A stretch of DNA of 64,000 nt from assembly GCA_045613565.1 (NCBI GenBank), contig JAZLBF010000035.1, positions 1,373-65,372 of the forward strand. Direction: 5' to 3'. The position numbers and the translations under genes are program-made. Within the stretch, counting starts at the first letter, position 1. Each line of letters starts with the position of its first letter. A model generated the notes under the pieces. The model saw only the letters and a program-made list of their open reading frames with translations. It had not been told where the DNA came from and made no database searches. This DNA is from Bacteroidaceae bacterium. Lineage in GTDB: Bacteria; Bacteroidota; Bacteroidia; Bacteroidales; Bacteroidaceae. Below, one piece after another: positions 26,258 through 63,604 of the stretch.

Positions 26258-26735
26258 CAATCCATTTTCATAGACCGTTGAAGTCTGTTTGTAGTATTAC
26301 AAACGCATTTCCGCAGATTGTTGAAGTCCCGTTGTAGTATTATAAACGCATTTCCGCAGACTGTTGAAGTCCCGTTGTAGCTTTACAAACGCATTTCCGC
26401 AGATTGTTGAAGTCTATTTGTAGTATTACAAACGTACTCCGCAGACTGTTAAAGTCCCGTTGTAGTATTACAAACGTACTCCGCAGACTGTTGAAGTCCC
26501 GTTGTAGTATTACAAACGCATTTCCGCAGACTGTTGAAGTCTGTTTGTAGTACTACAAACGCATTTCCGCAGACTGCTGAAGTCTGTTTGTTGTACTACA
26601 AACGCATTTCCGCAGACTGTTGAAGTCTGTTTGTAGCATTACAAACGCATTTCCGCAGACTGTTGAAGTCTGTTTGTAGTATTACAAACGCATTTCCGCA
26701 GACTGTTGAAGTCTATTTGTAGTACTACAAACGTC
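26258..26735. repeat. Tandem array, 43-bp period, about 11 copies (unit AAACGCATTTCCGCAGACTGTTGAAGTCTGTTTGTAGTATTAC)
   Basis: Period measured from AAACGCA at 26301 and 26344. Each unit junction forms the hairpin GTTTGTA-n4-TACAAAC. Two sub-variants are mixed (GTCCCGTTGTAG / GTCTGTTTGTAG; CGCATTTCC / CGTACTCC). Confidence 0.95.
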
Positions 26736-26842: not shown

Positions 26843-26850
26843 TATATTTG
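26843..26850 (+). promoter_or_regulatory. Bacteroidota -7 promoter box TATATTTG (TAnnTTTG) within GTATATTTGC
   Basis: The same decamer GTATATTTGC precedes the RND operon (40996) and the paaK-like gene (63605). Confidence 0.5.
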
Positions 26851-26856
26851 CAGTGT

Positions 26857-27181
26857 CTCGCGCCGAAAATGTCCTTTGTGGCATGGGTGGGCGTGGGGCA
26901 AGACATAATAAAGGCGTTTACTACGCTTTGGTTTTGACGGTTAGAAACTTCGCAAACTTCCAATCGTGGTCAAAAACAAAGCAACGTGAATGTCCTTCGT
27001 GGGTATGTTATACGCATTCCCCTATTGTACATTGACAGCCAAGGGCATGTGGTCAATTACAATAGTGGATTATATACACATATCGGCGTGGGGCTTCAGC
27101 GTTGCTCGTTTCGACTACGATGGGCAATGCGAAGGCCTCTAACCGTGAAGCGAGCAACAGTGCAGGGCTTCACGCTTTTTT
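26857..27181 (+). ncRNA. Candidate structured non-coding RNA of ~325 nt, unidentified family
   Basis: Bounded by the promoter box at 26843 and an intrinsic terminator at 27144-27181. No protein-like ORF. Internal helices include TTTTGAC…GTCAAAA, and GTTGCTCG (27101) pairing with CGAGCAAC (27151). Confidence 0.4.
27144..27181 (+). terminator. Intrinsic terminator CGTGAAGC-n15-GCTTCACG followed by CTTTTTT
   Basis: 8-bp GC-rich stem plus T-run, read directly. Confidence 0.65.
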
Positions 27182-27330
27182 GTATCTAATTAGAGATTCG
27201 GAATTAGAGTCGAGCCAATAGAGTAGCATATAAATATAGTTACAGTAAATTGGACTATACTCGTCTATTATTAATTTATGTCTATAGAAATTGAGTAAAC
27301 ATAATTCTAAATAGTAGATTTTCTAATTCA

Positions 27331-28581
27331 ATGAAACGAAGTACACTATTACCATTCTTAGGGTTATTCATTATTAGTTGTAGTAGTGATATTAATTCTA
27401 TTCAGGACCCACATTTTACTGATGAAGGGTATTACATTAATGATACTACCCAGCAAGAACTAATTATTGAACAACCTAGTTCGATTAAATTTTATGTAGA
27501 GGTATCTGGCTCTATGAATGGTTTCTTTAGAGCAAACAAACCCACATATTTCAAAACCGATGTTTGGCAAATACTAAGTTATTACGCACCAATTGCCCCA
27601 GAGATAACCGTTTTGACTAATAGTGGCAATAGCGGAGCCACGTTAGATACAAATAGATTCCAAAACGAAATGAACACAGGAGCCTTTGTTTCACAGGCAT
27701 CTACAAAAGTTCCAGTTATGATTGAAACAATAACATCTAACCTGAATATAGAACAAGGAGAAGTTGCAGTTCTCATATCTGATATGAAGTATAGTCCCGT
27801 CGGTTCTGCTGCACCTGCAGTATTATCCGCACAGTATAGCACAGACATTAGTAGGATTTTAGGAAAATATAATAATGCGGTAAGTATGATTTGCGCAACC
27901 TCAAATTATCTAGCTGCAAATGGAAATGAAATCTGTCAGCGTTCACCATATTATTATGTAATTTTTGGAAACCCTAGTCAAGTAATAAACGTTAGGAATT
28001 GCATTTCAACATTACTTCAAGATAGAGGACACTTTGTTGATAACATAGAAAGCGGTATAAATTACGGTAAGCAAACATATTCATTTGGTTCTCCTATTTT
28101 ATGCGAACAATTAGACTGCGAACCAACATTCATAAACTACGAGGAACCAAATGAAGAATATGGAGATACTTGTACGATAAAACTTAGAATTGATTTGACT
28201 AAGTATCGCTGGATATTAGAAAACGAAAGTATTCTCAGGAATTCGCTAAACATTCAATCTATCTATGGTTCCGATATAGAAATAGGCAAAATATCATATG
28301 AAATAGATACGAAAAAAGACAAGGAACTTAAGCGAGAAGCTATAGCTACTGTAGAAATTAAAGTATATAATTTAGCAATAGACATGGATGTCCTCAAGTG
28401 GAACATTACTCTTCCTGATACAAACTACACTCTCTTCTACGAATTCTTTGATGGAGCAAACGATGAAAATGATGTAACTAAATCTTATTCTGTACAAGAT
28501 TTCATAAAAGGCATGTTCTACGGTGGTATTGTAAATACTCAACCATCAACTAATTATATATTGATTTCTAAAAACTACTAA
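27331..28581 (+). CDS. Lipoprotein with vWA-like N-terminal domain (system gene A)
   Basis: Lipobox FIISC. FYVEVSGSMNGF (27490-27525) resembles the MIDAS beta-strand/DxSGS motif with E in place of D. A later VAVLISDM strand is present. Confidence 0.6.
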   Translation: MKRSTLLPFLGLFIISCSSDINSIQDPHFTDEGYYINDTTQQELIIEQPSSIKFYVEVSGSMNGFFRANKPTYFKTDVWQILSYYAPIAPEITVLTNSGNSGATLDTNRFQNEMNTGAFVSQASTKVPVMIETITSNLNIEQGEVAVLISDMKYSPVGSAAPAVLSAQYSTDISRILGKYNNAVSMICATSNYLAANGNEICQRSPYYYVIFGNPSQVINVRNCISTLLQDRGHFVDNIESGINYGKQTYSFGSPILCEQLDCEPTFINYEEPNEEYGDTCTIKLRIDLTKYRWILENESILRNSLNIQSIYGSDIEIGKISYEIDTKKDKELKREAIATVEIKVYNLAIDMDVLKWNITLPDTNYTLFYEFFDGANDENDVTKSYSVQDFIKGMFYGGIVNTQPSTNYILISKNY

Positions 28582-28584
28582 TAT

Positions 28585-29031
28585 ATGAAAGGTGTTATTA
28601 AACTTTACGAATGGATTGCGGGCAATATGTCCGACTTTACTAAACAGTTTGAAGGAAATGAAAATCTTCAATCACAAGCAAGGAGTTTTTGGAGAAGCCT
28701 TGACAATTACTCTATTGTTAGTGTATTGATATTTGTAATAATAGCAATTGGTGTGGCCACTATGTATTACAAACCTTTTAACAATAAGCCAGGCAGACAT
28801 TACCTACCTAAATATTGGTTTATGTTTTGGTTAGTCTCATTTATTGTTTCATTGTTAGTGACATTTGGTCTTGAATATATTTGTTGTGAACCAAAATTAA
28901 ATGGTGCAACTCTTATCGAGTTTAAGATAGCATTAGCAAATGCTATATATACTGCATTGTTATTCTTATTTATATCAATAATTTGGTGTAATATTTTACC
29001 TACTAACGCTTATAGAATTTTCAAAATATAA
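28585..29031 (+). CDS. Small integral membrane protein, about 3 TM helices (system gene B)
   Basis: Hydrophobic segments IVSVLIFVIIAIGVATMYY, WFMFWLVSFIVSLLVTFGL and ALLFLFISIIWCNIL. 3-nt gap from gene A. Confidence 0.6.
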   Translation: MKGVIKLYEWIAGNMSDFTKQFEGNENLQSQARSFWRSLDNYSIVSVLIFVIIAIGVATMYYKPFNNKPGRHYLPKYWFMFWLVSFIVSLLVTFGLEYICCEPKLNGATLIEFKIALANAIYTALLFLFISIIWCNILPTNAYRIFKI

Positions 29032-29033
29032 TT

Positions 29034-30437
29034 ATGAAAAAGGTTTTTGTCTTTTGCATTGGAGGTACGGGCATTAGAGTAATGAAAAGCATTACTATGC
29101 TAATGGCTGGAGGTATGGATACCAATGGGTATATTGTTGTACCTATTATCCTCGACCCTCACTTGGATTTAGAAGAGAAAAAGAATCTTCATACACTTAT
29201 TGATAGCTATAGAACTATATATGAAAAATCTGTTGAAAACGGTTCTTCTAGGCTAAACCATTTAGAAGGTTTCTTTAATTCTGAAATCCGCACTATTTCA
29301 GACCTAAATAATACCACAAATGACACTCAACAGGTAGTTGGAAGTAACGAAAAATTTAGCCAGTACATTAATTTATCTAATATTGGGGCTAATAATATAA
29401 ATAATCACCTAGTATCTACTTTGTTTTCATCAAAGAACCTGAATAATCCATTGTCTGTAGGCTTTAAAGGAAATCCCAATATGGGAAGCGTAGTCTTGGG
29501 CAATATGATTGAGGGAGCTGATTGGTTTAAATCCTTTAAACAGCATTGCGAACAAGGAGACCGAGTTTTTATAATTAGTTCTATTTTTGGTGGAACTGGC
29601 GCATCTGGTTATCCTCTTTTAGAAAAAAAAATTAGGTTTGCTCAAAATGAACCTGCTGTAAAGAATGCTCTTATGGGAGCTGTTTCTGTCCTTCCATATT
29701 ATGGATTGAAAGACCCAGCGACTACAGGTAGTGACATAGATTCAGCAAATTTCTATACAAAGACTAAAGCCGCATTAGCATATTATCATGGTAATGTAAA
29801 ATCTGATTACTTATATTACATCGGAGAAAAACGCTTGATGCAGGTATATGAGAATGATGAAAGGAAACAGGACGACAAAGCCAATTTCGTTGAGCTTATT
29901 GCTGCTTCGGCTCTATTTGATTTCTTAAAAAGAGAAAAGCCAGATAGACAACAATTCTTAACTAGAGCTATTGAAGAAGACAAAGAATCACTTGACCTAA
30001 ATTCATTAGGCCGAGGATACAAAGATGTTATAAAAAGCGTCGCAGATTTCATGTTGTTACGAGCCATGGTTGATATTCTTCCTAGAGAGAAATATTTCCC
30101 ACTGATAAAAACATACAAGTTTGATGAAAAATTCTATAAAGATTCTGCTTTTGATTCACTTAGTCGATTTTCAAACATATACAACAATTGGTATTCAGAA
30201 TTAGCCACAAATAAGCGTGCATTTGCACCCTTACATCATGATAACTTAAAACAAATGAAAGGGTGGATTAAGGGAATGGTTTTAGATGCTCCTGACGATT
30301 CATATTATTTACTCAAAATGATTCAGGCAAGTAACCATAATTCAGTCGAAAAAGAGCACAACAATACTTTTAGGTTCTTCATGCAATTTGCACATGAAGC
30401 AATTAATTATTATACTAGTAAATTAAATAAACAATAA
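29034..30437 (+). CDS. Tubulin/FtsZ-superfamily-like GTPase (system gene C)
   Basis: N-terminal VFVFCIGGTGIRV (compare FtsZ IKVIGVGGGGGNAV). DRVFIISSIFGGTGASGYPLL (GGTGASG at 29589-29609) is near the tubulin signature [SAG]GGTG[SA]G and FtsZ DMVFITAGMGGGTGTGAAPV. Confidence 0.7.
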   Translation: MKKVFVFCIGGTGIRVMKSITMLMAGGMDTNGYIVVPIILDPHLDLEEKKNLHTLIDSYRTIYEKSVENGSSRLNHLEGFFNSEIRTISDLNNTTNDTQQVVGSNEKFSQYINLSNIGANNINNHLVSTLFSSKNLNNPLSVGFKGNPNMGSVVLGNMIEGADWFKSFKQHCEQGDRVFIISSIFGGTGASGYPLLEKKIRFAQNEPAVKNALMGAVSVLPYYGLKDPATTGSDIDSANFYTKTKAALAYYHGNVKSDYLYYIGEKRLMQVYENDERKQDDKANFVELIAASALFDFLKREKPDRQQFLTRAIEEDKESLDLNSLGRGYKDVIKSVADFMLLRAMVDILPREKYFPLIKTYKFDEKFYKDSAFDSLSRFSNIYNNWYSELATNKRAFAPLHHDNLKQMKGWIKGMVLDAPDDSYYLLKMIQASNHNSVEKEHNNTFRFFMQFAHEAINYYTSKLNKQ

Positions 30438-30438
30438 T

Positions 30439-33400
30439 ATGGGACGAATTGACCTTAATATAGTGGACCGTGGAATACAAGGTACAGATTGGATTGCAGA
30501 GGACATTGGCTTGACCACAGAGCATCTTGATAAGGTTATGGAAATGAAGACAGACAACAGTGGAGCCTTAAATTCATTACCTACACCTTTCGCACGCTTC
30601 TTTGTAGCCAAAGAAGCATTTAGGCGCGCAATGGAAGAGTATCTTGATAACAAAAAAGAAGCAGGTTTCGCTTATAAGCAACTAGTATCTGATATACTAG
30701 ATGTATATGAAATCCTGTTTAATCTCAAGTACCATACTAATAACACATGGAAAAACGGAGAAGGCATAGAACTTCGTGAATGGGATAGCGTAGGAAATCT
30801 CACATATTTAAAACAACAAATGCCAGTATTGTATAATTCGCTTAATGAATATTATAATACTGACATTAAACAAGAGAAATTATATTTTCTTGTCTACACA
30901 GAAGAAGGAAAAGACATTTTATTAGCATGTAGTTCTCCAATTACGGGTTTTGTAACACCGCCAGATTTAGACAAATCAATTGTTAAGAGAAACGGAGCTA
31001 CTGAATACGTGTTTGCAGGAGAACAATACAACGACCTCAACATTCAGCGAAAATCAGGAGGATTTTATTTCCAGGATATAAAAATGTTTGAAGAAAGAGA
31101 CCAAGATTTCAAAAACTATATGTTTAATGTACTTTTTGGCTCTGATGAAGTTAGCGAATCGTTTAAACCCTTAAAAGATTATATTCGAAGTTTTAAGAAT
31201 GACAAAGAAATTCGCAACGACTATAAGATAAAGTTGACTCCAGTAAAAACTGACCAGAATGCCAATTTGATTATCAACCAATTAGCCATTCTTTCTTGTA
31301 ACGAAATTGATATCAACAGTTATTTCAATAACACAATCATAAAAATACCGTATCGAATTTCTCGAAAAAAATTTGAGGCAGTTAAATATAAAAACGATGA
31401 CCCAAATAGAGAATATGATTTCTTATTCCCATTTAAACCTGAAGTACTAAATCTATTCAATAATAATGATATTGACTCCTATATAAATGTCAATAGAACT
31501 TCGGTGACTGTATACCTAAATTATAATGGCAAAGAGTATCATAAAGAATATTCTACTAATCCAACCAATAATCAGGGAAAAATCTATGAACTAAATGTCG
31601 CAAATATAAACTTTAATCTAGGAATATTCCCCAATATATTGTCATATCAAGAATCAGAAAATAATTACTTCAAGATTTTTGTATCTGCTGCGGATGAAGA
31701 CACAGAGGCCCCTAATTTCAGTATAGATAATCTTAGCCTCACTTTTTACAAAAGTAATGGTTCTAGCATTTATCTAATTAAGGAAATTGACCCGACAAAT
31801 GCAGAATTTGGCGTGCTCCCTGCTGTTGTACGCTCAAAACAAGTGAAGAATGGTATAGAATGTGGAACTAAGTTTTACGAATTATTCAATAGCTCCTTTG
31901 ATATTATAAATATCACATTATTTAACCAACATTCTGGTTTCATCATTCCTAAATGGGATAGAAGTATTGCAACCTCAGAACAATTTACATATGCGGTAGA
32001 CCTAGGAACATCTAATACGTTTATCTCACGTTGTAAAATTGGAGATAATAATAAGCCTGAGTTATTCAAGATGGAACAACCAATGGTTAGTTATCTTCAC
32101 GAAATTCCGGAAGACCAACAACTCTCATTGGTTAAACGTATTGAAAATTCTATTTTTGATAGAGCAAAGAATAAAGTTAAAACGGAGTTTGTTCCTGCGA
32201 TAATAGACGGAAAAGATTATAAATTTCCAATTCGCACTGCTCTCTGCGGTATAAAAAACAAATCACAAGCCCCAAAACTGTTTGATAATCACAACATTGC
32301 ATTCTTCTATGAAAAATCAATGTCCAATGATGACCAAGATGTTCATACAGACATTAAGTGGGACAAGAATGACTCTATGTTAAGGGTCTTTATCCGTGAA
32401 CTTTTACTGATTATAAAATGTGATGTTCTACAAAGAAATGGTGATTTAGATAGAACATCTCTAGTTTGGTTTAAACCCTTGAGTTTCATGGGTAATACCA
32501 GAAGTATGTATATTGATATTTGGAACGAAGAAGCCAGAAATATTCTTGCAATAAGTTCTGACAAAATACAATGTTTCTCAGAATCAGAAGCTCCTTATTA
32601 TTACTTTAAGAGGATGGATTACATTAAGGATTCTGATGCGGCTGCTGTCATAGACATAGGTGGCGGCTCAACAGATTTTGTTTACTTCCAAGATAATAAT
32701 CCTATCGTTGCCAATTCTGTTCATTTCGGCTGTGATGTTCTTTGGGGAAATGGGCTTATCGAATTTGAAGATGTACGTCAGAATGGTATATACAAAAAAT
32801 ATGAAAACACAATTAGATTCAGCAAAGAAGGACTACAAGAACTAAATGATTGCTTTATCAACGTGGATAATTCCACAACAAAGGATATAATAAATTTCTG
32901 GTTAAGCAATTCAAATTATTGTGACATCAAGAAAAGTCTAAGCAACGATTTCAAACCTGTATTTGTTTATCACTTAACGTCTATTTTATTCTATATGGCA
33001 AATATGCTAAAAGAATATAGTTATACGGCACCTCGAACAATCGTCTTCAGTGGAAATGGTAGTAGATATATAGATGATTTTATCTGTTCCGACAAGAGAA
33101 TTCTTAAGAAAATAATTGACCAAGTATTTGAGCAGGTATTTGGAGCGGATAATAACGTGCACGTTGTTCTACCAAGTGAACGTAAGGAATCTACATGCTA
33201 TGGAGGATTATACAGAGGTGCTAATGCAGAAGATGTACCAGAAAAGGTATACCAAGGTGATATAAGTTATAGTTATAAGACTGTAGGTGATATTAACAAT
33301 AATTTTGAACATATCAAATCAGTATTAATTTCTAAATATAATGAGCTAGGACGCTTGTATAAAGATATTCTTGAACTACTGAAAACTGAACGTATTATTG

Positions 33401-33582
33401 ATAATACAGATAACACCAGTGTCTATGTTGAGAAATCATTAGAAGACATGGGAGTAGACCTCTCAACCTATTATAAATCACAAATAAAAGAAAAATACCA
33501 AGAAGAAATCCCTCTCTATGAATCGATATTCTTTTTGCCTATTATAAAAAAAGTTTTTGAACTGACAAACCTGAAGCAATGA
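30439..33582 (+). CDS. 1047-aa protein: unknown N-terminal half plus C-terminal actin/Hsp70-fold (ASKHA) ATPase (system gene D)
   Basis: Phosphate-1 motif AVDLGTSNT (31999-32019), phosphate-2 motif VIDIGGGSTD (32653-32676) and adenosine-like motif IVFSGNGSRYI (33046-33066), in the canonical order and spacing. Confidence 0.7.
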   Translation: MGRIDLNIVDRGIQGTDWIAEDIGLTTEHLDKVMEMKTDNSGALNSLPTPFARFFVAKEAFRRAMEEYLDNKKEAGFAYKQLVSDILDVYEILFNLKYHTNNTWKNGEGIELREWDSVGNLTYLKQQMPVLYNSLNEYYNTDIKQEKLYFLVYTEEGKDILLACSSPITGFVTPPDLDKSIVKRNGATEYVFAGEQYNDLNIQRKSGGFYFQDIKMFEERDQDFKNYMFNVLFGSDEVSESFKPLKDYIRSFKNDKEIRNDYKIKLTPVKTDQNANLIINQLAILSCNEIDINSYFNNTIIKIPYRISRKKFEAVKYKNDDPNREYDFLFPFKPEVLNLFNNNDIDSYINVNRTSVTVYLNYNGKEYHKEYSTNPTNNQGKIYELNVANINFNLGIFPNILSYQESENNYFKIFVSAADEDTEAPNFSIDNLSLTFYKSNGSSIYLIKEIDPTNAEFGVLPAVVRSKQVKNGIECGTKFYELFNSSFDIINITLFNQHSGFIIPKWDRSIATSEQFTYAVDLGTSNTFISRCKIGDNNKPELFKMEQPMVSYLHEIPEDQQLSLVKRIENSIFDRAKNKVKTEFVPAIIDGKDYKFPIRTALCGIKNKSQAPKLFDNHNIAFFYEKSMSNDDQDVHTDIKWDKNDSMLRVFIRELLLIIKCDVLQRNGDLDRTSLVWFKPLSFMGNTRSMYIDIWNEEARNILAISSDKIQCFSESEAPYYYFKRMDYIKDSDAAAVIDIGGGSTDFVYFQDNNPIVANSVHFGCDVLWGNGLIEFEDVRQNGIYKKYENTIRFSKEGLQELNDCFINVDNSTTKDIINFWLSNSNYCDIKKSLSNDFKPVFVYHLTSILFYMANMLKEYSYTAPRTIVFSGNGSRYIDDFICSDKRILKKIIDQVFEQVFGADNNVHVVLPSERKESTCYGGLYRGANAEDVPEKVYQGDISYSYKTVGDINNNFEHIKSVLISKYNELGRLYKDILELLKTERIIDNTDNTSVYVEKSLEDMGVDLSTYYKSQIKEKYQEEIPLYESIFFLPIIKKVFELTNLKQ

Positions 33583-35201
33583 GTATAAGCATAATTATTT
33601 CTATCGTTACATCTACGCTATTTATTAGCGCACAATATTACTTTTTTAGAGATACCAGAAAATATAGGATACTATTTCAAAACTTCTTCAAAAAAGTAAA
33701 ACCCTACTCTATTTCTAGACAAAGGGAAGGGAGCATTTATGATGACGAGCCTAATACATGTGATTACGTACAACTAGAACTTGTTGGCACCGAAGAATCT
33801 GATTTAAATAACCTAATCCGAGAAATAAATAATTATATCTTAAAAACAAAAGGAACTACAGATTTCTCTGTAATTCAAAATAAGGTGGAACGCAAACTGA
33901 ACATGAGGTATGACCAGTCTACTGCTAGATTATCCTTCCCTACCTATTTTGGATTATTAGGAACATTCTTTGGAGTATTCATCGGTATTTCATCATTTGT
34001 TTTAGAGTTCGATAGTAGCAATATTACAGACGATGCAATTATTGGACTTCTCGCCGGTGTACTAGTTTCTATGATAACTAGTTTATGTGGTTTGGGGTTT
34101 ACTACATATAATAACTTTCATTCTGGTGGCGCAAGGAAACAAATTGAAGAGGATAAGAATGAGTTTTATGATTTCATCCAAACGGAATTAATGCCTACTA
34201 TTGATGTAAGCATGGTGGCAGCAATCACAAAACTTCATGATACTGTAGACAAATTCGAACCTGCATTTGAACGTGTAATAAATAAATTTCAAACTACTTT
34301 CGACAAGTGCACTGATGCATTTGGTAAAAATTTTGAAAAGAATGTTTCGATTGTCACTGATGCTGTTGATATTATGGGTAGAAACATGGATAAAATCAAC
34401 CATAATATTAATTTACAAGAGAATTTATTGTCGACACTCAAGAGCGGAGAACTTATAGATGGCATGGAAAAATATATCCAAGCAGCAAATCACTTTGGTG
34501 GCATAACGCAATCTCTGAATAAGTTTGAAGAAGCAAGAAGAATGATGTTAGCTGCAACACAAGAAACTATTACAATGCAACAACAATACTCCGAGTCGTT
34601 AAAGATTCCTCGTGAAACAGCAATTAAAATTAATCAAATTCTTGACAGAATAAAAACATTTGAAAATAATATAAATATACTCGGAGAGCAAATTGCACAG
34701 CGAGAAATTTTAGGAAATGAAATTATTAATATCATAAAATCTCAGGTAGATGGTATTGCTAAAAAGGGCAAAATTGCTGACAAATATCTAGGAGTGGCTG
34801 ATGGAAAGCTAGAAGATTTATTTAAAAAGCAATCAGAAGTAATTGATTCTATGAACCATAAATATGGTTCTGCATTAGAAAAACATTTAATTGGATTTGA
34901 AAAGATTTTGGAAGACCACGAAAAGGAAATTATTTCTCGCCGAAATGCCTTCATGGCTGCAATTGAAAACAAGTTATCTATAGAAGATGTCCACCAAGAT
35001 TTCTCCAATCTCAAAAAGTTAAATGACATTAATAAAAATCTATCGGAAATAGCATCTACTTCTATTAAACTTGAAAATTTACATGACGAGATAAAATTAC
35101 TTCAATCTGAATTTACTCAGATAAGAGAGAGTATCGACAATTTAAATAAAGTGAAAGAAGAAGCTAAAAGTAGATGGAATATCTTTGGAGGAGGTAAGTA
35201 A
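33579..35201 (+). CDS. MotA/ExbB/TolQ-like membrane protein with ~340-aa coiled-coil C-terminal tail, a ZorA-like architecture (system gene E)
   Basis: YFGLLGTFFGVFIG (GLLGT at 33951-33965) and GLLAGVLVSMITSLCGLGFTTYNNF match the two conserved TM helices of ExbB/TolQ (…GLLGTV.G… / …T..GL…YN.F). The rest is heptad-rich and charged. Its ATG overlaps the gene D stop (ATGA). Confidence 0.7.
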   Translation: MSISIIISIVTSTLFISAQYYFFRDTRKYRILFQNFFKKVKPYSISRQREGSIYDDEPNTCDYVQLELVGTEESDLNNLIREINNYILKTKGTTDFSVIQNKVERKLNMRYDQSTARLSFPTYFGLLGTFFGVFIGISSFVLEFDSSNITDDAIIGLLAGVLVSMITSLCGLGFTTYNNFHSGGARKQIEEDKNEFYDFIQTELMPTIDVSMVAAITKLHDTVDKFEPAFERVINKFQTTFDKCTDAFGKNFEKNVSIVTDAVDIMGRNMDKINHNINLQENLLSTLKSGELIDGMEKYIQAANHFGGITQSLNKFEEARRMMLAATQETITMQQQYSESLKIPRETAIKINQILDRIKTFENNINILGEQIAQREILGNEIINIIKSQVDGIAKKGKIADKYLGVADGKLEDLFKKQSEVIDSMNHKYGSALEKHLIGFEKILEDHEKEIISRRNAFMAAIENKLSIEDVHQDFSNLKKLNDINKNLSEIASTSIKLENLHDEIKLLQSEFTQIRESIDNLNKVKEEAKSRWNIFGGGK

Positions 35202-35203
35202 CT

Positions 35204-36010
35204 ATGGATGGTAAAAGTAATGGTTCCTTTTGGCCAAGCTACGTAGATATAATGACGACATTATTTGCCATTATGCTCGTTTTATTTGTAGTATCCTTCT
35301 GTCGATTTAAAGTTAAGGAAAAAGAGCAACAAGAAACAATGGATATGCTACAAGCACTTGTTGACGAATATGAAAACATAATCACGGTATATTCAACAGT
35401 GGGTTCTATTGATTCAACTAAATATTTTGGATACGATGAAACATACCTAAAGCACCTGTTTACAGTCGACGTTGAGTATCAAACTCAAGGTTATCGTATT
35501 GCAGACCAATTAAAACTTGACAACATAGATAAGAATGCTGCAAACGAAAAACGCAGTGACATTCTAGCTGCAGGTAATCTCATCAAAGAGACTATACTAA
35601 AACTAGAAAACAATGAATCTATTGATAATAACATTAAGTTTCTTGTAGTTATTGAAGGTCAGGCCTCTAGAGTTAGATTTAATGACGGAGATTGGTACAA
35701 CAACTATACACTATCCTACCTAAGAGCTAGATTTATTAATGATTATTGGAAACAAAACGGAATTAATCTTGACGAAATTCCTCGATGTGAGCTTATAATC
35801 TCTGGAAGTGGTGAAGGTGGAGTACCAAGAATCATCCCTGATGAACATGCGCTGCATATGAAGTATCCAGACCCAATAGACTATAATAAAAATTGGATTG
35901 CAACAGAAGAAAAAAATCAACGTTTTCTTATTCATATAGTACCCGTTATTGGAAACATTGATGTAACAAAAGATAAAATTGAACAAATCAAGTCTCACAC
36001 AAACAAATAA
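35204..36010 (+). CDS. MotB/OmpA-like protein, ZorB-like (system gene F)
   Basis: N-terminal FWPSYVDIMTTLFAIMLVLFVV matches the MotB TM/plug (W..YADFMTAMMAFFL), including the conserved Asp (35246-35248). The C-terminal VVIEGQASRV…NNYTLSYLRA is a divergent OmpA_C-like peptidoglycan-binding pattern. Confidence 0.7.
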   Translation: MDGKSNGSFWPSYVDIMTTLFAIMLVLFVVSFCRFKVKEKEQQETMDMLQALVDEYENIITVYSTVGSIDSTKYFGYDETYLKHLFTVDVEYQTQGYRIADQLKLDNIDKNAANEKRSDILAAGNLIKETILKLENNESIDNNIKFLVVIEGQASRVRFNDGDWYNNYTLSYLRARFINDYWKQNGINLDEIPRCELIISGSGEGGVPRIIPDEHALHMKYPDPIDYNKNWIATEEKNQRFLIHIVPVIGNIDVTKDKIEQIKSHTNK

Positions 36011-36034
36011 TTGTCACATGATTATATTTTGAAA

Positions 36035-36562
36035 ATGGATGACAAATTTAACTTATTTATAGATGATAGTTCGTATATTGATTTTCGTCAGTCAATCATA
36101 GACTCTCCCGTCTTAACATATGACAAAAGTAAACTTCCTTTTGAAAATATCTTTTATCCCCCCAAAAAATATCCTACGCAACTTAAGAATATCGTAAAAT
36201 CATTAATACCAGTACACTATTATTTAAATAGGCATTTGTTTTATCTCAACAAGAAAGGAATCTGTCGAGCACATGGATATTATATTCCTGAAACAAAAAG
36301 GTTTGTAATATGCATGGGAAGTCTTCTATGTACATCGGTGAATAGCGAATATGAAAAAAGTAATTCAGGAAGTTTACGTGCATATCATATACAACATGCA
36401 TGTGAAAAATATCCAAATTATTATGTAGTTAAAAAAAATATAATATGTCTTTCTCCAACATCTGCGGCTTCATATGTTTTAGGCAGAGTAGCTCGATATA
36501 CTGATTGGAAAGATGAAAACGGAGATACTTTAGACAAGTTTTACGCATATAAATTCGTATAG
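36035..36562 (+). CDS. DUF4357-like protein (system gene G)
   Basis: …RAHGYYIPETKRFVICMGSLL…LSPTSAASYVLGRVARYTDWKDENGDTLDKFY resembles the DUF4357 pattern (…V.kGS…SPSaAA..vlGr..NG…WK…G.tL), from memory. The ATG at 36035 is preferred over the TTG at 36011. Confidence 0.5.
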   Translation: MDDKFNLFIDDSSYIDFRQSIIDSPVLTYDKSKLPFENIFYPPKKYPTQLKNIVKSLIPVHYYLNRHLFYLNKKGICRAHGYYIPETKRFVICMGSLLCTSVNSEYEKSNSGSLRAYHIQHACEKYPNYYVVKKNIICLSPTSAASYVLGRVARYTDWKDENGDTLDKFYAYKFV

Positions 36563-36637: not shown

Positions 36638-36673
36638 AAATCTCCGTGAGGGAATAGCCCTTCACGGAGATTT
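36638..36673. terminator. Bidirectional hairpin AAATCTCCGTGA-n12-TCACGGAGATTT between convergent genes
   Basis: 12-bp perfect stem flanked by A-run and T-run, read directly. Confidence 0.7.
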
Positions 36674-36705: not shown

Positions 36706-37944
36706 CTAATTCAGGAGGTAATCAAATACATTCATCATTATAATGCCATTGGGAGTAGTATGCGTTGGTATGTCATCTGTTGTAATAATAATTTTTATAA
36801 ATGAGTCGTCCGTAAGGGTTAGTGAGCGTTGCTCCTGCTTCTGTTTATCTTCGTCAGGTAAAGAATAAGCTGATTGTATATATACTCTTTCACTACCTTT
36901 ATTACAAACGAAATCTATTTCGAGTGTAGCTCTAGTGGTCTTACCTTCATCATCTTTTTGATAGGATGTAACGCATCCCACATCCACTTTATAACCATTA
37001 CCTATCAGATGGTTATATATAATATTCTCCATAATATGGGTAGGCTCCACTTGACGGAAATTCAAAAGTGCATTACGCAACCCAAGGTCAGCAAAATAAT
37101 ATTTATATGGAGTGTCTATATACGTCTTTCCTTTAATGTCATAGCGGACCGCTTTAGCAATAAGGAATGAGTCTATGAAATAGTCTATATAAGTTTTTAC
37201 TGTATTATGGCTTATTTTCACCTTTTTCTCACTAACAAATGTGTTTGCTAGTTTGTTTGGATTAGTTAATGCTCCAATATTTGATGCCAAGAGGCTGAAT
37301 AATTCTTCTAATTCCGCATCATTTTTTACATTATTACGGTTGATTATATCACTTAAATAAGTCTCTTTTAGCAAATCCTGGAGTATTTCTGCTTTTCGCG
37401 CCTTGTCCTTCTCCATGACTACCATTGGTAGACCTCCGTAATAAATGTAATCTCGCCACAATGAAGAGGTTTCCTCATCTGACTTTTCTTTTATTTCCTT
37501 AAACGACAGCGGTTGAAGATGGATCTGAGCTCCGCGTCCTCTGAACTCAGTAACAATATCTGAAGAAAGGAATTTCGCATTACTTCCAGTTATATATACA
37601 TCTAGATTCTCTATACGCAGGAAACCATTAAGCACATCAACAAAACTCTCCAACATCTGGACTTCATCAATCATCACATAATACATCTGTGAATCTTGCT
37701 TTGTCTGATTTTCGACATATTCATATAGAGTTTCTGCACTACGATATTTACGGTGTACAAATGAGTCAAGTTGTAATTCAATGATATGACTAGCATCAAC
37801 ACCATTATCTAAAAGATGTTGCTTATAAAGGTTGAATAGAAGATACGATTTACCAACGCGACGTAACCCAGTAACAATCTTTATCAAATGATTATGCTTG
37901 CTACTTATCAACTTATCAATATAAAGTTGTCTTTCGAATTTCAT
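36706..37944 (-). CDS. AAA-family ATPase with DUF4143-type C-terminal domain
   Basis: N-terminal …KIVTGLRRVGKSYLL (P-loop-like), DEVQ Walker-B-like motif, and overall organisation typical of the widespread Bacteroidota 'ATP-binding protein/DUF4143' family. Confidence 0.75.
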   Translation of the reverse strand: MKFERQLYIDKLISSKHNHLIKIVTGLRRVGKSYLLFNLYKQHLLDNGVDASHIIELQLDSFVHRKYRSAETLYEYVENQTKQDSQMYYVMIDEVQMLESFVDVLNGFLRIENLDVYITGSNAKFLSSDIVTEFRGRGAQIHLQPLSFKEIKEKSDEETSSLWRDYIYYGGLPMVVMEKDKARKAEILQDLLKETYLSDIINRNNVKNDAELEELFSLLASNIGALTNPNKLANTFVSEKKVKISHNTVKTYIDYFIDSFLIAKAVRYDIKGKTYIDTPYKYYFADLGLRNALLNFRQVEPTHIMENIIYNHLIGNGYKVDVGCVTSYQKDDEGKTTRATLEIDFVCNKGSERVYIQSAYSLPDEDKQKQEQRSLTLTDDSFIKIIITTDDIPTHTTPNGIIMMNVFDYLLN

Positions 37945-37947
37945 ATA

Positions 37948-38138
37948 GAGACAATTTTTGTGTATTTACACACTTTTCGTCTACAAAGATAGTTATTTAA
38001 TCATGAAATAGCCTTAACACTGGAGACAATTTCTGTGTATTTACACACTTTTTGTCAATAGAGATAGTTATTTTATCATAAAATAGCCTTAACCCTGGAG
38101 ACAATTTCTGTGTATTTACACACTTTTTGTCAATAGAG
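37948..38138. repeat. 75-bp tandem repeat, about 2.5 copies; each copy carries a minus-strand TATCTTTG promoter box and the palindrome TGTGTAttTACACA
   Basis: Unit starts (GAGACAAT) are at 37948, 38023 and 38098. The array begins 4 nt upstream of the AAA ATPase start codon. Confidence 0.9.
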
Positions 38139-63395: not shown

Positions 63396-63604
63396 TGAAC
63401 CCATTAGACTGACTATCTGAATATACGTTTGTAATACTACAACGAGAGGTTTATTAATCTATAAACAATGGAGGAGTAATATCTTGTGATGAACAAATGA
63501 GCGGGGAGCAACAATCTACCAGCAGAAGTCAAGAGTTTTCACAACTCTTTGCATGTATGTATAGCTTTTATTAAAATAGGTGAATGATTAGACAATATTT
63601 TTTG

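Follow-up and report, generated by a model that had tools for sequence, protein, structure and literature searches.

We combine profile searches, structure prediction and a comparison of related loci to characterize a pair of stator-like genes, E and F, in a 64,000-nucleotide (nt) stretch of contig JAZLBF010000035.1 (hereafter the window; labels such as L001 denote related loci from elsewhere). The pair belongs to a cassette of seven genes, A to G, which form one closely packed operon on the plus strand (Table 1). This operon lies in a low-GC island, where the GC content is about 33% from roughly 28 to 38 kb of the window compared with 42–47% in the flanking sequence. A preliminary description of the same DNA had singled out E and F as resembling ZorA and ZorB, the motor subunits of the anti-phage defence system Zorya, and had placed both open reading frames exactly where we find them. 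The surroundings that it drew need correction in two respects: instead of five genes, four co-directional genes (A–D, 27331–33582) precede the pair, and the pair does not close the operon, since gene G abuts the stop codon of F and the terminator hairpin follows G.

Table 1. Genes and other features of the cassette and its immediate surroundings, in window coordinates.
Feature	Position	Strand	Description
-7 promoter motif	26843-26850	+	Bacteroides-type TATATTTG, 5' of the leader RNA
Leader RNA	26877-27183	+	Conserved structured non-coding RNA with a stem and U-run at its end, 148 nt 5' of gene A
Gene A	27331-28581	+	416-residue lipoprotein with vWA/MIDAS-like motifs (from the translation)
Gene B	28585-29031	+	148-residue multi-pass membrane protein (from the translation)
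Gene C	29034-30437	+	467-residue protein, predicted member of the tubulin/FtsZ superfamily
Gene D	30439-33582	+	1047-residue protein with a predicted C-terminal ASKHA (actin/Hsp70/Ppx) ATPase fold; no family assigned to the N-terminal half
Gene E	33579-35201	+	540-residue ZorA-like stator subunit (predicted)
Gene F	35204-36010	+	268-residue ZorB/MotB-like subunit (predicted)
Gene G	36011-36562	+	183-residue cytoplasmic DUF4357 protein, abutting the stop of F
Operon terminator	36638-36673		Hairpin with a 15-bp stem, between G and the convergent gene H
Gene H	36706-37944	-	AAA_14 and DUF4143 ATPase; PADLOC candidate PDC-S01

We begin with the larger subunit. By profile comparison, E is a predicted member of the MotA/ExbB superfamily that is closer to ZorA than to ExbB or TolQ. 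The two hallmark transmembrane (TM) helices of the ExbB/TolQ/MotA type that the preliminary description had read from YFGLLGTFFGVFIG and LCGLGFTTYNNF are present, and hydropathy adds another, giving three TM segments in all (residues ~1–23, 123–144 and 151–176). An AlphaFold2 (AF2) model places residues 1–210, with three TM helices, at a predicted local distance difference test score (pLDDT) of 75–87. Between TM1 and TM2 the secondary structure assigned to this model by DSSP comprises a beta-hairpin (residues 45–49 and 62–66) followed by two helices (75–89 and 96–115), and the pLDDT of this cytoplasmic insert is 72–85 except at residues 51–60. A cytoplasmic domain comprising a pair of helices together with a beta-sheet between TM1 and TM2, termed the 'Z' type, has been described as unique to Zorya-type proteins (PMC12505986). 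The remainder of E is a tail of 360 residues (181–540), somewhat longer than the roughly 340 first proposed, and its described character holds: the AF2 prediction is all-helical, with seven helices over residues 181–529, and the heptad-type hydrophobic contrast lies 6.7 standard scores above shuffled sequences (z=6.7), although only 35% of its 28-residue windows show a strong heptad pattern. Helical and heptad-like as it is, the tail falls short of a continuous canonical coiled coil.

How E relates to known families depends on the breadth of the profile used. A profile built from close homologues alone finds FliS and haemagglutinin coiled coils as its best matches, with ZorA at 0.53; a profile of diverse members was needed. 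The family is large enough to supply one, with at least 870 clusters at 90% identity and, by exhaustive profile search, 1026 representatives at 50% identity. The profile of 32 diverse members (18–43% identical to E) matches ZorA of type I (8vvn_C, 7.7e-6) and of type II (8vvi_F, 8.9e-6), and TolQ only at 0.044. When these 32 members are scanned singly, ZorA hidden Markov models (HMMs) are the commonest matches in both PADLOC and NCBIfam: the PADLOC ZorA2 models match seven to nine of them (best 1.7e-10), NCBIfam ZorA_2 matches 10 and ZorA_4 seven, and 11 match Pfam MotA_ExbB. The conserved positions include residues of the predicted ion path. G125, L126, G128, T129, G132 and G136 are invariant in TM2, as are M165 and G171 in TM3, and S168 of TM3 is at least 90% conserved in both close and distant sets. 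T129 and S168 align with the GTF and TS of Shewanella ZorA and are the counterparts of the polar ring T147/S184 of E. coli ZorA (EcZorA); in ZorA a ring of such Ser and Thr residues faces the Asp of ZorB (PMC11946911).

Gene F fits the partner role. It has one TM segment by hydropathy (residues 9–38), and the MotB-type helix with an ion-conducting Asp that had been noticed in FWPSYVDIMTTLFAIMLVLF stands up well: the Asp is residue 15, it is invariant among 22 F sequences, and the surrounding motif FWPSYVD[IV]MTTLFAI is essentially so, aligning with FWISYADLMT of E. coli ZorB (EcZorB). A family profile of F finds E. coli ZorB as its best match in the PDB (0.0064), followed by B. subtilis MotB (0.041). 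The C-terminal domain was described as a degenerate OmpA-like one, marked by GQAS and NNYTLSYLRA. Both strings are present, the conserved core of 22 orthologues reads GQ[AS]S...NNYTLSYLRA...SGSGE.G.PR...NQRFL, and the Pfam matches are weak (OmpA 0.0075, MotB_plug 0.043). Of the EcZorB positions Y151, N152, L155 and R159, the Tyr is replaced by Asn in F and the other three are kept as N167, L170 and R174, invariant in all 22 sequences; thus three of the four peptidoglycan-binding positions of ZorB are retained, and F may bind peptidoglycan through its predicted OmpA-like domain. In ZorB a helix connects this domain to the TM helix, with neither plug nor linker. The periplasmic stalk that joins helix and domain in F (residues ~34–48, window 35300–35345) varies among orthologues by exactly 7 or 14 residues. 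Because these insertions and deletions are multiples of seven residues, we take the stalk to be helical, and the pattern suggests that it is coiled and adjusted in length by whole heptads. The lengths of E also fall into classes (~523–545, 567–568, 599–609 and 661–678 residues). Taken with the stalk steps of F, these classes suggest that rod lengths are tuned in both subunits.

Could the pair simply be an ordinary energiser of the ExbB-ExbD/TonB or TolQ-TolR/TolA kind, or a flagellar or gliding stator? E shares the three-TM A subunit and the 5:2 motor superfamily with the first two. The 50 best Foldseek matches of its model are all A subunits of 5:2 stators (ExbB, TolQ, ZorA, PomA, MotA), and ExbB and TolQ structures lead this ranking by a small margin. 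NCBIfam exbB2 matches 10 of the 32 diverse family members, more weakly than the ZorA models (best 1.6e-4), and there is a weak match to GldL (0.005). Against these affinities stand the type of the B subunit, since F has the Asp helix and OmpA-like domain of MotB and ZorB and not the form of ExbD or TolR, and the 360-residue tail, a part that ExbB and TolQ lack. PADLOC, Pfam and NCBIfam scans of the cassette find no ExbD/TolR-type protein, no TonB, TolA, GldM or FliG and no flagellar genes; MotA, moreover, has four TM segments to the three of E. Neither outcome that the preliminary description had named as a refutation, scores of an ordinary ExbB/ExbD-TonB or TolQ/TolR component or a tail without coiled-coil character, was observed. 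The energisers are housekeeping machines, whereas this cassette is accessory and mobile, as described below. We therefore give the ordinary-energiser explanation hardly any credence.

The preliminary description mentioned the genes around the pair as other genes preceding it; what it overlooked is that they form a conserved module with a predicted tubulin fold and ASKHA fold, and that relatives carry hydrolase genes downstream. Gene A begins with a lipoprotein signal (...FIISC) and its translation contains the motifs VEVSGSM and VLISDM, in which E57, S59, G60, S61, M62, S150 and D151 are invariant across 20 homologues; a distant homologue in L034 keeps ENSGSM, a variant of the ExSGS type. A has no Pfam match, and a profile of its homologues finds nothing in the PDB (PDB profile searches for A, C and D were limited by the shallow alignments that the related loci provide). 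Since the profiles give no match, we call A vWA/MIDAS-like from its motifs only. Gene B holds the same position in all loci, including the distant locus L035, and has no family match in the PADLOC, Pfam or NCBIfam libraries.

The two proteins encoded next are better placed. C carries the motifs GGTG and SIFGGTGASG and matches Pfam Tubulin at 0.019, and its distant orthologues do so at 6.6e-6 (Tubulin_2 at 3.7e-5). Its AF2 model is of low confidence (pLDDT 50, predicted template modelling score 0.53), and the 50 best Foldseek matches of this model are all tubulin or CetZ (best 3e-4); a profile of close homologues gives chance-level matches only in the PDB. Homologues of C number more than 3500 protein clusters, including some from Phocaeicola vulgatus, and one P. 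vulgatus variant of C was found on 357 contigs. In D, the ASKHA motifs phosphate-1 (DLGTSNT) and phosphate-2 (IDIGGGSTD) are both invariant in 20 sequences. D matches Pfam Ppx-GppA (3.4e-4) and FtsA (0.027) and the NCBIfam exopolyphosphatase family (6.7e-6), and its profile finds an exopolyphosphatase in the PDB at 0.0075, a match that covers the phosphate-2 motif only.

Gene G, at the other side of the pair, matches Pfam DUF4357 (1.6e-5). In its orthologues this domain occurs one to three times, with E-values as low as 7.5e-31, and weakly resembles RAMA, a domain of restriction systems. Residues 73–177 match the C-terminal part of two PADLOC defence candidates, PDC-S14 (2.1e-12) and PDC-S57 (7.5e-6). 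Both of these are single-gene candidates, whereas G lacks their N-terminal part and is found inside a multi-gene operon. It is also the most variable and fastest-evolving member of the cassette, with identities of 25–56% and lengths of 183–475 residues.

We then ask how far the cassette behaves as a unit. A genome scan gave 31 related loci, nearly all in Bacteroidales metagenome-assembled genomes, and every complete locus among them has the order A-B-C-D-E-F-G, with the stator pair at positions five and six. The 10-kb flanks of 18 of these loci are mutually unrelated. Because the order is kept while the flanks are not, the cassette is a mobile unit: it moves horizontally and is widespread in Bacteroidales. 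Its neighbours include PDC-S01 (in the window), PDC-S04/S05, AriA, AbiE, MADS and restriction-modification genes. Further away, a core of A-B-C-D, one extra gene and E-F recurs in five distant loci, where E is ~20–25% identical. Homology of C, D, E and F is confirmed for L032, L034 and L035, and that of A and B also for L035; L038 and L040 were matched to the cassette by gene order and protein sizes only.

The two halves of the cassette are also seen apart. On a Parabacteroides distasonis plasmid (L036; NZ_OY725823.1, 6800–10922) genes for a DUF4433 protein and a 222-residue protein stand before an E/F pair; A–D are absent, and PDDEXK, AAA and Toprim genes lie close by. We take DUF4433 to be a DarT-type ADP-ribosyltransferase domain. 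A Gloeothece verrucosa plasmid (L037; NC_014503.1, 5881–12900) shows the reverse arrangement, with genes for a lipoprotein, a small TM protein, a tubulin-like protein and a 1118-residue D-like protein and no E or F. Similarity is detected for the tubulin-like protein (to C) and weakly for the D-like one. The lipoprotein has a canonical DGSGSM motif and no significant similarity to A, so that the A-like and B-like proteins are assigned by motif, size and position. With this reservation on A and B, the A–D module is thus also found where the motor is absent, and beyond the Bacteroidota. The ZorAB-like pair, for its part, is a module that joins different sets of partners, as ZorAB does in Zorya types I–III (PMC11890865).

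What lies at the end of the cassette differs between relatives. Pfam Endonuclease_NS is found in 14 of the 113 flanking proteins scanned (best 2.2e-60), and tblastn places such a gene in 17 related loci, directly 3' of G in 16 and on the opposite strand beside the cassette in L009. The copy in L002 (13015–13887) carries a lipoprotein signal. The preliminary description had recognised no nuclease, which holds for the window, where tblastn finds no Endonuclease_NS homologue anywhere in the 64 kb, and fails for the family. The close relative L001 also lacks the gene, and we conclude that the window copy and L001 have lost it. In the more distant loci the terminal hydrolase is of another kind altogether: an SNase in L032, a trypsin-like protease in L034 (with a vWA protein two genes further downstream), a DA1-like peptidase in L035 and a retropepsin-like aspartic protease in L038 and L040. 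The SNase, trypsin-like and DA1-like genes start with lipoprotein signals. Since unrelated hydrolases replace one another at the cassette end, we regard this position as an effector slot, and Endonuclease_NS is probably the cassette's effector.

With the partners in hand, we can compare the system with Zorya itself, and the likeness is concentrated in the motor. As in the ZorAB structures of E. coli (8QYD), Shewanella (8VVN) and Sulfuricurvum (8VVI), E has three TM segments with the Thr of GTF in TM2 and a Ser in TM3, a beta-hairpin and two helices between TM1 and TM2, and a long tail predicted to be helical, in which residues 194–304 align with that of type II ZorA (NCBIfam ZorA_2, tail portion, 1.1e-6); F has the Asp helix, a presumed helical stalk and a degenerate OmpA-like domain in which N..L...R is retained. 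The Zorya motor is ZorA5B2, and both its tail and ion flow are needed for defence (PMC11946911, PMC11890865). One might take the system for a genuine Zorya of type I, II or III whose gene order has been rearranged, and ZorA and ZorB are indeed the best-scoring known families. The scores nevertheless fall well short of the curated thresholds: E reaches 27.9 bits for NCBIfam ZorA_2 with a cut-off of 100, and F reaches 19 bits for NCBIfam ZorB1 with a cut-off of 400. In PADLOC, which had been suggested as the check, E has no ZorA match and F has one of 29.9 bits to ZorB1 (8.8e-8). The type-specific partners found downstream of zorAB in Zorya are ZorC with ZorD, ZorE, or ZorF with ZorG, and no cassette protein matches any of them in PADLOC. 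The partners here are wholly different and conserved as a set of their own: one protein each with a tubulin and an ASKHA fold, a lipoprotein and a TM protein. The pair follows four genes here, whereas zorAB leads the operon in Zorya; the hydrolases of relatives are exported where checked, whereas Zorya effectors are cytoplasmic nucleases or helicases; and the host belongs to the Bacteroidota, whereas a survey of three Zorya subtypes found Proteobacteria and Campylobacter among the commonest genera (PMC11890865). Because it fails on three counts, the HMM thresholds, the partner genes and the gene order, we classify the pair from its sequence as ZorAB-like and not as a member of Zorya; the first half of the original label survives in that ZorA and ZorB are the nearest relatives, and the second, a place at the end of the operon, does not. 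As far as sequence can tell, a rearranged Zorya is refuted, and we consider it exceedingly improbable. By analogy, its mode of action at the membrane is very probably that of ZorAB.

The cassette also has a regulatory region of its own. Upstream of gene A, an iterated nhmmer search finds a leader RNA of ~300 nt in the window and in 14 related loci (L001, L002, L005, L006, L011–L013, L015–L017, L021, L027, L029 and L031), and partially in L020. It is GC-richer than its surroundings and has a minimum free energy of -128 kcal/mol (z=-7.9 relative to shuffles). The structure is supported by covariation: compensatory double changes occur in 19 of the 24 consensus pairs, 93% of cells are paired compared with 73% in shuffles and 34–45% in slid controls, and the covariation score is 0.657, a value that none of 500 shuffles reached, compared with 0.27. 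The G-U pairs are consistent with the plus strand only. Across loci a 3' stem and U-run end 44–157 nt before gene A. In nine of 15 loci a TAnnTTTG motif, which we take to be the Bacteroides -7 promoter consensus, stands ~45–55 nt 5' of the conserved element. Rfam holds no match at the gathering threshold or at E<1, and the covarying RNA is a candidate for a new RNA family. It could act as a leader that causes attenuation or be a small RNA in its own right, and we may speculate that a G-rich 5' motif competes with its terminator stem.

Although we found no paper on the Bacteroidales cassette, and nothing in the literature that combines ZorA, tubulin, actin-like or vWA components beyond one study, that study offers the closest published precedent, an operon table that includes FtsZl1, vWA and MotA/OmpA proteins (PMC2875224). 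Its supplementary operon table lists Deinococcus DR_0540–DR_0535 as hypothetical, hypothetical, FtsZl1, MotA/TolQ/ExbB, OmpA and leucine-rich repeat proteins. As far as this table goes, the gene order is similar: a hypothetical protein of ~420–480 residues and a small protein come first, a tubulin-superfamily protein follows, and then come MotA-like and OmpA/MotB-like proteins and a variable gene. The FtsZl1 operons are likewise accessory and patchily distributed, with a predicted function. They differ in that FtsZl1 has ~1000 residues with a coiled coil and a helical C-domain, compared with the 467 residues of C, which has no coiled-coil region, and in that a separate 1047-residue ASKHA-fold protein, D, stands between C and E here. 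The text of that study covers vWA, GTPase and OmpA proteins, leaves a MotA-like partner or a link to ZorA undiscussed, and predates Zorya.

This precedent matters because Makarova and Koonin proposed in 2010 that tubulin-like/vWA/OmpA operons act in membrane remodelling or vesicle biogenesis (PMC2875224). Applied to our cassette, the same idea would make it a machine for envelope remodelling, vesicle formation or hydrolase export with no immune role, in which the motor and the NTPases C and D reshape the membrane and expose or release lipoprotein hydrolases for scavenging or competition. The Deinococcus gene order and the lipoprotein signals, on A as well as on the Endonuclease_NS, SNase, trypsin-like and DA1-like terminal genes, speak for it. 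Several features are harder to reconcile with such a machine: the cassette is mobile, with a patchy distribution and a low GC content, and is found in unrelated contexts beside defence-type genes; hydrolases of families that are not related replace one another as its terminal gene, and G shares DUF4357 with the defence candidates PDC-S14 and PDC-S57, both patterns typical of conflict systems; and the closest relatives of the motor are ZorAB. On balance we regard a purely remodelling role as rather unlikely, yet as the leading alternative, one that the export signals on the hydrolases checked keep in play.

Our preferred interpretation is that the E/F motor is the membrane module of a mobile conflict system directed at phages or other mobile elements, and from the combined evidence we judge this to be probable. 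The observations that weigh against it concern each part of the argument. On the side of the motor, E matches neither Pfam MotA_ExbB nor the PADLOC ZorA models, all Zorya HMM scores for the pair are below curated thresholds, the Foldseek E-values of E are weak (2e-3 or worse, with probabilities of ~1), and the tail is modelled at a low-confidence pLDDT of 40–60. The replacement of the Asp of GHTD by Ser in the OmpA motif of F (GQAS) makes peptidoglycan binding less certain. On the side of the defence function, the defence-island context of the cassette is qualitative, the export signals on the hydrolases checked (Endonuclease_NS, SNase, trypsin-like and DA1-like) are unlike the cytoplasmic effectors of Zorya and fit export or remodelling as well, and the window cassette, being without a hydrolase, may be a decayed or differently acting variant.

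Drawing our intuition from ZorAB, we can sketch how such a conflict system might work. E and F would assemble as E5F2, an inner-membrane motor of the ZorA5-ZorB2 type that is driven by ions (protons) and anchored in peptidoglycan. Two F helices carrying Asp15 would stand within a ring of five E subunits presenting Thr129 and Ser168, while the OmpA-like C-terminal domains of F would hold the cell wall via the helical stalk and the five E tails, each of ~360 residues, would come together as a long bundled rod in the cytoplasm. An envelope event could then be sensed by F, the lipoprotein A and B, with A and B possibly acting as periplasmic inputs or anchors, and rotation or displacement of the E tail would pass this event to the cytoplasmic NTPases C and D. 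In this scheme the variable hydrolase would be activated or released as the output, and G would perhaps recognise DNA. In most relatives the hydrolase would be the exported nuclease or protease that follows the cassette, which the window copy is without.

To our knowledge, Zorya is the only defence system that uses a flagellar-type rotary motor, and the way in which its tail signals to the effectors is a matter of ongoing work. If a ZorAB-like motor also operates with a second and quite different group of partners, the motor would be a reusable signalling module. We consider it quite possible, though somewhat less likely than not, that the cassette represents a prokaryotic immune or conflict system of a new class. 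In it a wall-anchored rotary motor of the Zorya type would be linked mechanically to two NTPases, a GTPase with a tubulin fold and a giant ATPase with an actin/Hsp70 fold, and the system would be controlled by its own leader RNA and have interchangeable hydrolases, several of them with export signals. If so, it would provide a cytoskeleton-like signal route from the envelope to an effector, and the E/F family would be a Bacteroidota branch of ZorAB that uses several partner modules, including the one with DUF4433. The tubulin-like/vWA/OmpA operons, whose function has stood as 'predicted membrane remodelling' since 2010, would gain a concrete and testable one. The cassette is common in gut Bacteroidales, and in the gut of humans and animals it may have a bearing on envelope biology or on the dynamics between phages and their hosts.

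Finally, we consider what else shares or borders the low-GC island. Gene H, convergent with the cassette and equally low in GC, matches PADLOC PDC-S01 at 1.2e-114. We rejected it as a cassette member, as it lies on the opposite strand and is conserved in none of the related loci; it appears to be a defence-candidate gene of its own within the shared island. No tRNA and no flanking att-like direct repeats were found at the island borders. Between an upstream gene with tetratricopeptide-repeat and helix-turn-helix-like features and the leader RNA lies a tandem array (26272–26733) in which a 43-nt unit that includes a small hairpin (TTTGTAGTATTACAAAC) recurs 10.8 times, and a 24-nt match occurs at 63424–63447. 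This array was likewise rejected as a part of the cassette, as the related loci are without it. A further repeat, with 2.5 copies of a 75-nt unit (37948–38138), lies at the island's right edge, where gene H and an aminotransferase-like gene flank it.

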